Positions 7,721 through 17,393 are shown, counted from the first letter of the stretch. The stretch is DNA of 64,000 bases from an uncultured Pelagibacteraceae bacterium (GCA_902531885.1 CACAFZ010000002.1:41247-105246); one strand, 5' to 3'. The notes: generated by a model from the letters alone, not told the origin. Numbers and translations are program-made.

Positions 7721-7760
7721 CGGGGCGTAGCGCAGTCTGGTAGCGCATCTGGTTTGGGAC
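7721..7760 (+). pseudogene. attL: 5' half of tRNA-Pro(TGG), a 40 bp direct repeat of 17317-17356
   Basis: CGGGGCGTAGCGCAGTCTGGTAGCGCATCTGGTTTGGGAC is 39/40 identical to the start of the intact tRNA and diverges right after the anticodon loop; no T-arm or 3' acceptor strand follows. Confidence 0.95.
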
Positions 7761-7859
7761 TAGATGTATTTATTGTCCCAGGCGTTTCAATTAAACTATA
7801 TCTTTCAACACTAATAGAGCATATCAAAGCCTATTACATACATCAATAAAATAAGTTAA

Positions 7860-7880
7860 AGCCCCCATATGTCCCCCAAA
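7860..7880 (+). repeat. integrase arm-type site pair (left arm)
   Basis: AGCCCCCATATGTCCCCCAAA matches the paired GCCCCCAA repeats at 17134-17153 and 17210-17228. Confidence 0.7.
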
Positions 7881-7926
7881 TTCCCAGGTGTCAGTCAGGA
7901 ACCAAGCAATTACTGATCTTTGAATA

Positions 7927-7958
7927 TACCACGAAAGCCTTATTTTACGTGGTAAATT
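7927..7958. promoter_or_regulatory. operator-like inverted repeat TACCACG-N14-CGTGGTA(AATT)
   Basis: Same half-sites, 14 bp spacer and AATT flank as 14984-15015. Confidence 0.65.
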
Positions 7959-7989
7959 GCACATAAAAGACTCGTATAAGTTGAATAAA

Positions 7990-8020
7990 CGAGGCTCAGC
8001 CTACGGCTTCGCCTCGCTTT
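7990..8020 (+). other. GC-rich hairpin (terminator-like or origin hairpin)
   Basis: CGAGGC-TC-AGCC-TAC-GGCT-TC-GCCTCG followed by CTTT. Confidence 0.5.
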
Positions 8021-8289
8021 AGGAGCCACGTATAGCACGGTCAATCTCAATCCCGTGGTATTTACAAAAAAGATCCTAAATGCGTTTTAAACGTCGTTTT
8101 TAAGCGTTTAACCGATACACCTGAGCTGGTTTAACCTTTAGATTATATCCAGTTAAACTATCAATGATCCATAGACTTAGAGTACCTGAAAACTTATCAA
8201 CATTAAAAAAGTTTAGGTTCACAAGGTCAAAAAAATTTTATAAATTTTCAATTCGAAAGGAAAAAATTTTTTAAAAATTTCAAATCAAA

Positions 8290-8487
8290 ATGGGTTGGTA
8301 TAAACAACATAGCTCTTTTTCAGATCCACTCGATACACCAGTTGTTGATCGCTGCATAAATTGTGGCAATCACAAAGAGGTTAAAACTACAATGACAATG
8401 GAATTCGGGGAGGGCAACTATAACACTGGTCCAATCTGCAAAGATTGTTATTCAGCTAATCGTGGACCGAGGATAATTCAAGTTTAA
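8290..8487 (+). CDS. small zinc-finger protein (element)
   Basis: CINC...CKDC pairs; ends directly at a hairpin; the only + strand gene of the element. Confidence 0.6.
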   Translation: MGWYKQHSSFSDPLDTPVVDRCINCGNHKEVKTTMTMEFGEGNYNTGPICKDCYSANRGPRIIQV

Positions 8488-8525
8488 TTTTGCTCCCCAA
8501 ACAGGGCAGTCCGAGGAGCAAAAAA
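8488..8525. terminator. hairpin between convergent genes, likely terminator of the minus-strand transcript
   Basis: TTTTGCTCC (8488-8496) pairs with GGAGCAAAA (8515-8523). Confidence 0.5.
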
Positions 8526-8578
8526 CGTATTACTATTCAGACAAGGTGTGTATGAATAAGATAAACGTAATATACAAA

Positions 8579-15015: not shown

Positions 15016-15667
15016 ATTTTTTAAGGATTTTTTGACAGATAGCTTTAAATTCTTTTGCTTTGAACCTAAACTCTTCTTTTATCCATCTATTATATTCTGA
15101 TTTCTTTTCTTCTAATACTCTTCTACGTTTCTCAATTATTTGTTCGCAAATTTTATCGTGTTCGTGTTCATAAAAACTTTTTCTTTGTACTAACTTTTTA
15201 TTTATTTGAGTTTTACTTGGACTGACTTTCGTGAAATCAACTCCATGCAGCGAACAACAAATTTTAAAATTTTCATTTACAATGGTTCTCGGACCTTTAT
15301 CTTTATTATTTTTTATATTCATTTGGTCCTCGATAAATTTAACTAAATAAAATCTTTGTTTATCTTTTTCTTTGAAAGGTCTGTTTGTATTGGCAACCAA
15401 AACGTCCATAGCGTCCTGGGCTGTGTCATACATACTTTTCGCATAGTGTCCCAGGTTATTCCAAGTATAAATAATTCGATCTTGATAAAATAGATCAGCC
15501 AGTTCTTCTTGGACGTTCTTATAAAATTTTTTAGGATCACTGGTTCCCCATAAATCTAATCCACCAGTAATTTTTTCTGCTTCTTTCAGCGTCATCTTCT
15601 TTGACGCCTTTCTTCGTTTTTGACTGCCCATAGCCCAGGTATATCGGACCATGGACAGATTTACCAC
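15014..15667 (-). CDS. hypothetical protein downstream of integrase (element)
   Basis: 217 aa ORF; the true start may be a later Met. Confidence 0.7.
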   Translation of the reverse strand: MVNLSMVRYTWAMGSQKRRKASKKMTLKEAEKITGGLDLWGTSDPKKFYKNVQEELADLFYQDRIIYTWNNLGHYAKSMYDTAQDAMDVLVANTNRPFKEKDKQRFYLVKFIEDQMNIKNNKDKGPRTIVNENFKICCSLHGVDFTKVSPSKTQINKKLVQRKSFYEHEHDKICEQIIEKRRRVLEEKKSEYNRWIKEEFRFKAKEFKAICQKILKK

Positions 15668-15675
15668 GAAAACAT

Positions 15676-17058
15676 TTAGGCAACGTGTGATCTTCTTTTT
15701 GCAATTTGATTTATTCTTTGACGTTTAATCTCATCTGAAACTTTTATATATTTTTCAATGGATTTGTGATCTCGCCAACCTCCTAACTCCTGGATAGCTT
15801 TACTGTCCCCAGTTATTCCATATCCAATAGTTGCCCAGGTATGTCTAAGAAAATGAATACATTTAAAAGGCAACTTCGCTAATTTAATTATAGTAGCGTG
15901 AGTTTTACGTGGATCTCTAATATGCAAAGTTTTTATTTTGGTTATTTTATTTTTCTTTCTATTTTTTAGAACCTTGAAACGAGTAGGGAACACATACTTA
16001 AATCTTTTATCTCTATGATTTATTGTTCGTCTGTGTTTTGCCATTATTCTTAAAATAGCTCTAAATCTATAATCAAAAAACAATGTCATTGGTTCATCAT
16101 TTTTTGTGTCCTGGTAATAGATTTTATTACTATCGAAATTAATTTGGTCCCACATCAAACTAAATACCTGGTTCTTTGATCTTGCTCCAAGTAATCTAGC
16201 AGCACGTAACGAGAAACACGGAACAAGGTACTTTTCCCGATCTTGTCTAATTAACTTTAAACTAGCTTTTCTGTATCGTTTAAGTTCAGATTCAGTGTAA
16301 GGAGCCTCACGGTCCAATCTTCCTTTTTCCTTAAAGAGTTCTTTCTTTTTAAAATATGCAACTCTCTTTTTGAGTATTGCCGTTTCTTCAGCATATTCCT
16401 CAACGGATTGTATAACCTCAATAACTCTATTTGATTGATACTTACTCCATTTCATAATGGCTCTATGGAATTGTAAATAATCATCTTTTGTGAGATCAAT
16501 CATAGGCTTATTCACAATGTCCATAAAAGGCATTTTGTATAAAGACTTATGACCTGGGTTCTTGCTTTTCTGTTTAATATAAACATTAAACAAGCTCAGA
16601 TAATTCTCATAGGACTTTAAACTTTTAGCTCTATTCTCAATCCATATTTCAGCAACATCACAAAGACTTTTTCCTTTTGATCTTCTTGCAACAATCACAT
16701 TTGGATCTTCATTTCTTAGGATCTTAGCTTTCATTTCTTCAGCCATTTTACGTGCGACTGCTGGTGTTATTCCAACAAGATCTTTTTCTTTCGGATCGTT
16801 TTTGTCATACCAACGACCAAGAGTTTTATTTATTTTTTCAAAATAATTTCCTTTCTCATCTTTTCCTTTTGGTCTGTATCTGAAAATAAATGATCTTTGT
16901 CCTCCAGGACTAACTCTAGCTCTAAAGCCCATTAAATTTTTATCTTTAATGATCTTTTCCTTGTAGTAGTTTCCTTTCGGAATAGGTTTAAGCAGCGCCA
17001 TGATTTGATTATCAATTCGCACTCTTCCGTCATCATCAAGTTTTATTTCTTTTTTCAT
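15676..17058 (-). CDS. int: tyrosine integrase with N-terminal arm-binding domain (P4-like architecture)
   Basis: N-terminal GFRARVSPGGQRSFIFRYR..TLGRW; catalytic GARS (R), DTKND (K), HFLRH, LGGW and KYI (Y). Confidence 0.93.
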   Translation of the reverse strand: MKKEIKLDDDGRVRIDNQIMALLKPIPKGNYYKEKIIKDKNLMGFRARVSPGGQRSFIFRYRPKGKDEKGNYFEKINKTLGRWYDKNDPKEKDLVGITPAVARKMAEEMKAKILRNEDPNVIVARRSKGKSLCDVAEIWIENRAKSLKSYENYLSLFNVYIKQKSKNPGHKSLYKMPFMDIVNKPMIDLTKDDYLQFHRAIMKWSKYQSNRVIEVIQSVEEYAEETAILKKRVAYFKKKELFKEKGRLDREAPYTESELKRYRKASLKLIRQDREKYLVPCFSLRAARLLGARSKNQVFSLMWDQINFDSNKIYYQDTKNDEPMTLFFDYRFRAILRIMAKHRRTINHRDKRFKYVFPTRFKVLKNRKKNKITKIKTLHIRDPRKTHATIIKLAKLPFKCIHFLRHTWATIGYGITGDSKAIQELGGWRDHKSIEKYIKVSDEIKRQRINQIAKRRSHVA

Positions 17059-17104
17059 TTTCTTCTTTCTTCCTTTCTTATTTAGTTTTTGTTTTTAGAA
17101 AGTA

Positions 17105-17128
17105 AATGACACGGATCTTTCGTGGTAC
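17105..17128. promoter_or_regulatory. operator-like box upstream of integrase
   Basis: AATGACACGGA-TCTTT-CGTGGTAC, identical to 14955-14978 except for the 5 bp spacer. Confidence 0.7.
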
Positions 17129-17132
17129 GCAT

Positions 17133-17241
17133 AGCCCCCAACGTAGCCCCCAAACAAATCTACATAGTAAATTTAAGCGTGATTTATCAGGGTTATAAAA
17201 TTGATCGCAGCCCCCAATCTGCCCCCAAAGAGATCTACATA
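17133..17241 (+). repeat. integrase arm-type sites (two pairs) in attR
   Basis: GCCCCCAA at 17134, 17146, 17210 and 17221; both pairs are followed by ATCTACATA. Confidence 0.75.
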
Positions 17242-17279
17242 TGTTTATAAATTGTTTCATTTTCTTTCTCTTTCTTTAG

Positions 17280-17308
17280 TTGAAAAGATAAGTGTTTATG
17301 CGTATAAC
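17280..17308 (+). promoter_or_regulatory. element-supplied sigma70 promoter for the reconstituted tRNA-Pro
   Basis: TTGAAA (17280-17285), 17 bp spacer, TATAAC (17303-17308), 8 nt before the tRNA. Confidence 0.75.
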
Positions 17309-17316
17309 CAAGGCCT

Positions 17317-17393
17317 CGGGGCGTAGCGCAGCCTGGTAGCGCATCTGGTTTGGGACCAGAGGGTCGCAGGTTCAAATCCTGCCGCCCCGACCA
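17317..17393 (+). tRNA. tRNA-Pro(TGG), intact (attR)
   Basis: CGGGGCG/CGCCCCG acceptor stem, TCTGG-TTTGGGA-CCAGA anticodon arm, GGTTCAAATCC T-arm, encoded CCA. Confidence 0.98.

Follow-up and report, generated by a model that had tools for sequence, protein, structure and literature searches.

An Integrated Element in a tRNA-Pro Gene

We analyzed a 64,000-nucleotide stretch of DNA from an uncultured Pelagibacteraceae bacterium (the window), which carries an integrated SAR11 element encoding a family A DNA polymerase. The element is bounded by direct repeats at 7721-7764 and 17317-17360, each 44 nt long, 95% identical and spaced 9,596 bp apart, and the right copy is part of an intact tRNA-Pro(TGG) gene (17317-17393). 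The copies differ at position 16 (T/C), which lies inside a 40-bp core, and at position 41. The GC content is 33.2% in the element versus 27.1% in the rest of the window. Thirteen open reading frames (ORFs) lie between the repeats, 12 of them on the minus strand (Table 1, where names such as o133 and o278 give lengths in the first ORF list).

A sequence-only reading of the same DNA had described a 9,596-bp unit between tRNA-Pro repeats, with an intact-looking integrase, an Xis-like helix-turn-helix (HTH) protein, about ten orphan genes and a family A polymerase, and this inventory was borne out. The integrase and the polymerase were the only products to pass curated cut-offs (PF00589 and PF13356 for the former, PF00476 for the latter). 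The integrase has R291, H402-x-x-R405, W428 and Y437, the putative catalytic residues of a tyrosine recombinase, and the polymerase retains the ExoI DxE motif and motifs A, B and C. The Xis-like protein has a weak excisionase match, and family comparison places its likely start at ATG 14911. The ten further ORFs gave no confident Pfam, PHROG, NCBIfam or PADLOC family. That reading had recognized no capsid, tail, large terminase, lysis, relaxase or primase-helicase gene; Pfam, PHROGs and NCBIfam likewise gave no match to a primase, helicase or relaxase, to a terminase, or to capsid, portal or lysis proteins in the element. The sole Walker A-like stretch in a six-frame scan of the element was a chance one within the integrase gene. 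Rfam gave no match other than the tRNA.

Table 1. Features of the polymerase-bearing element and its attachment (att) sites, in window coordinates.
Feature	Position	Strand	Remarks
attL	7721..7764	+	tRNA-Pro 5' half; host-derived T16, element-side T41; from repeat search and attR/attP comparison
Degenerate paired GCCCCCA-type repeat	7861..7880	+	Likely integrase arm site; resembles the exact pairs at the other end
Two CACG-N14-CGTG palindromes	7930..8057		Likely operator or origin sites
o65	8290..8487	+	Small CxxC...CxxC protein; sole opposite-strand gene; family 9, in 30 loci
o253	8579..9340	-	N-terminal Xis/AlpA-type HTH plus helices; predicted packaging adaptor
o135	9400..9807	-	Small gene after polA; candidate origin binder
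Family A DNA polymerase, Klenow-like (polA)	9837..11711	-	624 aa from ATG 11711; 3'-5' exonuclease and polymerase; PF00476 E 2.7e-31
Three variable small orphans	11711..12725	-	123, 141 and 73 aa, between SSB-like gene and polA; families 14, 17 and 11, patchy across loci
o206	12727..13347	-	Predicted OB-fold, phage-type single-stranded DNA-binding protein (SSB); weak fold evidence
o278	13483..14319	-	Hypervariable orphan; at family level, N- and C-terminal motifs in common with HTVC027P gp42 and gp41
o133	14319..14720	-	Orphan with double-glycine motif of phage gp41/gp42-type proteins
Xis/AlpA-like HTH protein	14717..14911	-	64 aa; phrog_66 excisionase E 5e-4 (weak); likely directionality factor
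Palindromic sites upstream of xis	14960..15008		CACG-N14-CGTG at 14987-15008 and a shorter one
o217	15014..15652	-	212 aa; orphan adjoining int; candidate repressor
Palindrome	15665-15687		Just upstream of o217
Tyrosine integrase with arm-binding domain (int)	15676..17058	-	460 aa; PF00589 E 7e-8, PF13356 E 8e-8
Two paired GCCCCCAA direct repeats	17134..17228	+	Likely integrase arm sites; 2 matches versus 0.00 expected
TTGAAA-N17-TATAAC	17280..17308	+	Likely element-supplied promoter of the rebuilt tRNA gene
attR	17317..17393	+	Complete tRNA-Pro(TGG); 5' part element-derived, 3' part host-derived

Excision and Presence in Ocean DNA

The element is intact, mobile and excising, and its insertion is site-specific, in the 5' half of tRNA-Pro. 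The attP junction, in which the right end of the element is joined to the left end across the tRNA half, was found in four metagenome contigs that are 99% (L034, the whole unit in permuted order), 99% (L033), 87% (L039) and 77% (L037) identical to the element. The attP core has C16, as in attR, and T41, as in attL, which is the product expected from excision with a crossover between tRNA positions 17 and 40. In the closest relative, the empty site carries T16 and is preceded by the same sequence as attL. Six of the seven relatives' loci that could be read by pattern (19 fetched) have an empty site, with a zinc-ribbon gene ~94 bp upstream of the tRNA. Across the 12 minus-strand ORFs, L034 and the element differ by 57 synonymous and 18 non-synonymous codons. 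The sequence-only reading had proposed a search for attP junctions and called the element apparently intact; the junctions and the mostly synonymous differences agree with it, and the objection that no excision occurs fails.

At least half of the element's sampled words were present in 20 sequencing runs (15 studies), with no RNA run among those listed. Reads were mapped to the left part of the element. Two runs labeled as aquatic viral metagenomes and one marine run cover positions ~7731-12500 at a depth of ~3-22 per bin, which rises in the bin that holds the tRNA half, with a depth of 0-0.6 on the host flank (6500-7705). A fourth run covers the element and the host flank alike.

The Polymerase and Its Neighboring Genes

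We found 182 homologues of the polymerase, and its matches in PDB are of the Pol I type. In a quick tree, the polymerases of SAR11 elements formed a clade (SH-aLRT 98) apart from the host Pol I and from gp10 of pelagiphage HTVC027P; the broad group around this clade comprised 1,437 clusters at E<=1e-30. The element polymerase is not covered to 80% by any phage record, and two IMG/VR queries yielded no close relatives (45% or more). A PADLOC match to RTasPolA was attributed to the PolA domain; the element has no reverse transcriptase gene. Compared by description only, the polymerase was not placed in any of the 19 PolA clusters in the available part of PMC10201439.

The product of o206 is likely an SSB, judging from its predicted fold (AlphaFold pLDDT 81.4). 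The longest VIA alignments were to gp32 of T4 (134 residues, Z 3.9, rmsd 4.7) and of RB69 (136 residues, Z 3.4, rmsd 4.8). With Foldseek, the best BFVD match was a "DNA binding protein" (E 1.3e-4), named SSBs following at E 4e-3 to 6e-3; no PDB match was obtained at E<=0.001 and no usable match in Atlas. The protein does not align with HTVC027P gp03. The pairing of o206 with polA extends beyond SAR11, o206 being found upstream of polA in an alphaproteobacterium (L235). A complex prediction for the polymerase and o206 scored 0.00 and was used neither for nor against an interaction.

On the other side of polA, o135 (family 1) is present in 83 of the 90 polymerase-bearing loci described below. 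It gave no Pfam or PDB sequence match, and a Pfam domain was found in 0 of its 120 listed homologues. Its alignment suggests a winged-helix-like protein.

In two sister elements, L163 and L260, which are filed as viruses in IMG/VR, o133, o278, o253 and int are kept, while SSB, polA and o135 are replaced by a 902/919-aa protein and a small gene; those of L163 are an AEP-type primase-helicase and a RusA-like resolvase. The SSB-polA-o135 block thus fills the replication slot. More distant relatives of the polymerase are fused to DUF3854 (P0228, on a 9,156-bp contig), to a Toprim-like domain (P0237) and to a 5-hmdU kinase helical domain (P0261). The first two fusions suggest that polymerases of this clade as a rule depend on a primase. 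HTVC027P has a primase and a helicase of its own, and priming of the element's replication by a borrowed primase/helicase is favored.

A Family of ~9-kb Relatives

Metagenomes were scanned with the polymerase alignment, 80 of 244 confirmed relatives were kept, and the family layout was derived by ORF clustering of 90 polymerase-bearing loci. The gene order is int, regulator, o133, o278, xis, o206, variable genes, polA, o135, o253 and a reversed o65, with xis preceding o133 in the Pro and Val subgroups. Among the 37 near-complete loci (those with int, o206 and polA), o278 is present in 35, o253 in 30, o133 in 28 and a small terminase subunit (TerS) gene in one. Half or so of the polA-bearing contigs of at least 8 kb (14/27) are self-repeating, with units of 8.3-9.6 kb. 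Insertion is into the 5' half of the tRNA genes for Pro and Val and into the 3' half of those for Thr, Arg and Asn. No ORF in any of the 90 loci matched the capsid, portal or large terminase subunit of HTVC027P. Carriers are uncommon: six of 401 genomes in the genus (own genome included, many incomplete) and three of 401 across the class. The named Pelagibacter carriers are HIMB4 and HIMB1444.

A contig with nearly two head-to-tail units of a relative (L111) may be an assembly effect. Two Pelagibacter members at tRNA-Thr (L011:12624-17768 and L013:13252-15023) have extra genes after o135. These presumably encode a MerR-type regulator and a cation-efflux transporter, with further metal/redox-type genes in L011. 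From its gene content, the family can apparently act as a cargo carrier.

Motifs Shared with HTVC027P-Like Pelagiphages

Many members of the o278 family start with MK(I/V)xEYxxMMxYLTR, strictly in 15 of 42 members (near-duplicates included) and loosely in 21 of 42. This start, attributed to HTVC023P-type phages, was then tested by a pattern scan of the 2.9 million viral contigs of IMG/VR. The scan gave 115 stretches, none of which matched the integrase or polymerase profiles. Of the 80 fully fetched, 78 carry homologues of the HTVC027P terminase or portal (55-92% identity); the other two are a short piece and the sister element L163. In the phages, the motif starts a variable protein of 200-1,400 aa between terminase and portal, and gp42 of the cultured HTVC027P lies in the same position and begins with a variant of it. 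The motif match was built into the search; the concentration of matches in a single phage group was not.

Two additional motifs, which played no part in that search, were scored against shuffled sequences and other core families. The double-glycine (GG) motif of the phage proteins exceeds the 99th shuffle percentile in 6 of 24 o133 members, against 0-1 in other core families, and the window copy scores 8.9 with the position-specific matrix versus a threshold of 7.3 (99th-percentile shuffle). The C-terminus of the gp41-type protein, whose gene lies upstream, is above threshold in 7 of 33 o278 members, against 0-2 in other families; in 20 of the 33, the best-scoring site falls within the last 20 residues. 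When complete o278 and o133 family proteins were compared with cultured phages by tblastn, nothing useful was obtained.

A true TerS gene follows polA in the sisters L008 (phrog_51, E 1.6e-11), L009 (E 1.5e-14) and L258, and the L009 protein is 35% identical to HTVC027P gp29 (E 1e-21). In most family members this slot is occupied by o253. The o253 model is of low quality (AlphaFold pLDDT 63.5, pTM 0.25); its Foldseek matches are limited to the HTH, with none at E<=0.001, and Atlas gave unnamed clusters and weak HTH clusters only. An alignment query found no o253 relatives in IMG/VR, though L163 and L260, which carry them, are there. A resemblance of the o253 C-terminus to a DGSV motif of the portal N-terminus was rejected, with 3 of 32 members above threshold and the window copy below it.

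In the phage loci themselves (L118-L197 and L233:21952-26083), the terminase-portal interval contains two hypervariable genes whose products combine constant terminal motifs with repeated GG motifs and have no Pfam or PHROG function. From their sequences, these look like polymorphic virion-loaded proteins; a literature search found no virion proteomics for gp41/gp42.

Relation to Known Mobile Elements

Phage-inducible chromosomal islands (PICIs) follow an order of int, regulator, xis, replication and packaging genes, and are proposed to travel as concatemers in full-size helper capsids, as are the islands of the PICMI type. The element has the same order, but it differs in having a polymerase block in place of a primase-helicase or Rep, in lacking TerS in the window copy and in having all but one gene on the same strand. 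For the PICI primase/helicase (pri-rep) module, the element gave no profile match and no real Walker A, although it may have a profile-less initiator.

The closest likeness is to the virion-encapsidated integrative mobile elements (VEIMEs), for which an integrase-bearing element integrated in a marine bacterium and the lack of a major capsid gene are characteristic; both are found here. Most of the papers cited in this section and the next were available in part, and statements about them refer to those parts. In VEIME module 6 (Eppley et al. 2022, PMC9618062), a COG0749 polymerase is present in 78 of 195 members, and the module is associated with Pelagibacter (44 of the 58 with a host). A tyrosine integrase is present in 95%, TerS in 52%, helicase in 36% and primase in 0.5%, with no capsid gene, and two AFPP monomers are 9.24 kb long with 33.8% GC (PMC9618062). 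The Pelagibacter link, tyrosine integrase, lack of capsid, COG0749 and ~9-kb size are shared with our element. That module is, however, a gene-sharing cluster with TerS and helicase in part of its members, and the window element has neither. The element is probably an unnamed member of module 6, and since polymerase-A satellites of SAR11 were already tabulated there, the "new class" of the sequence-only reading does not stand. The available part of PMC9618062 names no helper, gene order, SSB or motif sharing.

The PolA-SSB primases, such as CcPol-MP of SCCmec (10.1101/2022.12.02.518924), also pair a family A polymerase with a neighboring SSB of predicted OB fold, on mobile elements that encode a site-specific recombinase. 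As described there, they come from Firmicutes, mostly with serine recombinases, and have the SSB between polymerase and helicase, whereas in our element the SSB-like gene is upstream of polA and the operon helicase by which such primases are recognized is absent. TV-Pol elements (PMC2579912) likewise carry a family A-related polymerase, but a minimal one beside a D5 helicase; ours combines exonuclease and polymerase, passes PF00476 and has no D5. Tycheposons (10.1101/2020.12.28.424599), likened by description only, share a tRNA-targeting tyrosine integrase at one end, an optional replication module that may include polymerases, and cargo or TerS variants, while the window copy is without cargo. 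Pipolins (PMC5695915) are also centered on their own DNA polymerase, which is of family B and primer-independent rather than of family A.

With subscription papers and bioRxiv supplements outside its scope, our search found no print record of a block of polymerase, SSB-like and small genes lacking primase/helicase, nor of the candidate helper. The available parts of PMC12926913, PMC7111524, PMC11876622, PMC12669031, PMC9599517 and 10.64898/2026.04.03.716430 contain no helper link or such gene order.

A Proposed Satellite of HTVC027P-Like Phages and the Alternatives

We interpret the capsid-less element, with a probability of about 0.55, as a satellite of lytic HTVC027P-like (HTVC023P-type) pelagiphages that would combine its own polymerase with helper capsids. 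Summed over all helpers, it is quite probable that the element works like a phage satellite. HTVC023P-type phages are reported to be lytic (10.1101/2019.12.14.876532) and to rank among the most abundant pelagiphages (PMC9599517), with genomes of 57.6-60.9 kb. By hand count in Dataset S3 of PMC9618062, 17 of 19 VEIMEs of 8.94-9.30 kb, 32.5-35% GC and at least four reads have longest reads of 60.8-64.0 kb, and Beaulaurier et al. reported concatemer peaks at 60-65 kb with seven copies. This ~9.0-kb group fits the size of our family and an HTVC023P-type headful.

In the scheme that we propose, o217 would keep the element quiet through the CACG-N14-CGTG sites until infection lifts the repression and Int and Xis excise the circle. 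The polymerase, the SSB-like protein and o135 would then make concatemers, with primase and helicase borrowed from the helper or the host. From the small-terminase slot, o253 may recruit the helper's terminase to the DNA of the element, so that a ~60-kb headful would contain ~6 to 7 units. Finally, o133 and o278 would reuse the sorting or binding motifs of gp41/gp42, leading to loading into, or disturbance of, particle assembly. A stronger version is unlikely: a lytic-phage satellite family in which PolA itself primes with a phage-type SSB, o253 packs concatemers as a non-terminase adaptor, and proteins are loaded through copied sorting motifs.

Several observations weigh against the HTVC027P-like helper. 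In the window o278, the N-terminal motif is missing and the C-terminal score is too low (2.7 vs 8.9), and o133 passes narrowly; with one of three motifs kept in this copy, the helper link is inferred. Because the family members are kin, their motif counts are not independent, and shared motifs reflect gene exchange or mimicry and are not proof of helper use. The element has no recognizable TerS, as noted for all but one near-complete locus, so that the role of o253 rests on its position. HTVC023P itself is without the motif in 11-27 kb (16 kb), which confines the link to the HTVC027P-like subgroup, and no DNA match such as a pac-like site was found between the window element and the 80 phage loci. 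The SSB fold match of o206 is weak (Z<5). Contigs do not reveal whether the DNA was circular or concatemeric, or whether it was in capsids, in vesicles or free. As for Dataset S3, its rows are not tied to the element family by sequence; they are labeled module 1, to which Dataset S5 gives only two genomes, and elements of 39% and 49% GC reach the same ~63 kb (available parts of PMC9618062).

That the element is instead a VEIME module 6-type satellite of another pelagiphage, or of several, with the motifs left over from capture of HTVC027P-like genes, is somewhat unlikely. Excision, virome presence and family size fit such a helper equally well, and the window o278 has lost the motifs, o278 being the most variable core gene (24% mean column identity). 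Against it, three separate motifs and the sister TerS point to one phage group, on which the scan of 2.9 million contigs converged almost exclusively.

We regard as quite unlikely a self-synthesizing element whose PolA and SSB would prime and copy the circle without a helper replisome, in the manner of CcPol-MP, and which would spread in vesicles, carrying cargo like a tycheposon, or in virions, as an unspecific passenger. The block that stands in for the sisters' primase-helicase and the genes after o135 in L011 and L013 agree with this, PolA-SSB primases are established (10.1101/2022.12.02.518924), and six elements of VEIME module 6 came from vesicle fractions (PMC9618062). All 17 PolA-SSB pairs described in the available part of the former paper are, however, tied to a helicase, and the element has none; its polymerase keeps a full proofreading domain, some relatives of the polymerase are fused to DUF3854 or Toprim-like domains, and the phage-like motifs and sister TerS would be left unexplained. 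The sequence-only reading had left open whether the element is helper-dependent or self-synthesizing. Its first option has gained a specific candidate helper, and no positive evidence was found for pipolin-like self-sufficiency.

A decayed prophage remnant, suggested by the lack of virion genes and the ten orphans, is highly improbable and largely refuted by the same ~9-kb layout at five tRNA types (90 loci), attP formation, mostly synonymous change, relatives of equal size with no full prophages among them, and the limited phage and IMG/VR matches of the polymerase.

If the satellite of HTVC027P-like phages is real, a common parasite of HTVC023P-type phages would divert particles from killing the ocean's most numerous bacterium, and it would carry genes between SAR11 lineages, two relatives holding cargo. 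Catalogs of marine satellites largely lack helpers; here, the cultured HTVC027P on HTCC1062 and the carriers HIMB4 and HIMB1444 make the pairing testable. The value of the element lies in this named, cultured candidate helper together with a primase-less polymerase block, which raises the biochemical question of how a proofreading family A polymerase starts replication without a primase or helicase. The shared motifs are also a first handle on the unannotated gp41/gp42 genes of HTVC027P-like phages.

Regulatory Sites and Minor Observations

CACG-N(8-18)-CGTG occurs six times in the window, always within the element, with 0.18 expected. The N14/N15 palindromes precede o217 and xis and lie near the left end, and their positions are kept in L037. 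In the 90-locus clustering, o217 (family 28) is present in the window, L034 and L037 only, that is, in the Pro subgroup, like the palindromes. In the other subgroups checked, the palindromes are absent from the matching places and the o217 slot holds another gene; the regions preceding int, the regulator and xis showed no common palindrome in the non-Pro subgroups checked. The simplest reading of this distribution is that o217 and CACG-N14-CGTG form a putative repressor-operator pair.

Insertion duplicates the tRNA 5' half, so that the rebuilt gene depends on an element-borne promoter. The hexamers and spacing of TTGAAA-N17-TATAAC are kept in the attP of L039 and L037 with a divergent spacer sequence; a consensus promoter scan does not list it. 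The promoter and terminator scans were at chance level. The small protein o65 gave a weak match to DUF7685 (E 0.044).

No helper phage was found in the window's own genome (71% complete), in which HTVC027P proteins match the host Pol I, the element polymerase and one chromosomal gene. The last (G000:C11:19098 onward) encodes 227 aa and is 43% identical to the HTVC027P exonuclease gp27.

In HIMB4 (L013:2234-15809), tRNA-Thr is followed by three partial 3'-half copies (3533-3586, 4962-5016 and 15765-15809), that is, by insertions stacked one after another at this site. A Bacteroidota (Vicingus) metagenome-assembled genome contains a whole 9,230-bp unit (L012:1-9285) with a 45-nt tRNA-Asn half identical to that of the SAR11 host; this unit is probably an excised element that was mis-binned. 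An integrase-like gene of a second type (family 38) was observed at L011:328-4735 and L008:4662-6191. In L011, it lies on the opposite side of tRNA-Thr, along with a P-loop protein of 637 aa; the L008 copy, which has no called tRNA nearby, is the apparent integrase of the TerS-bearing member.

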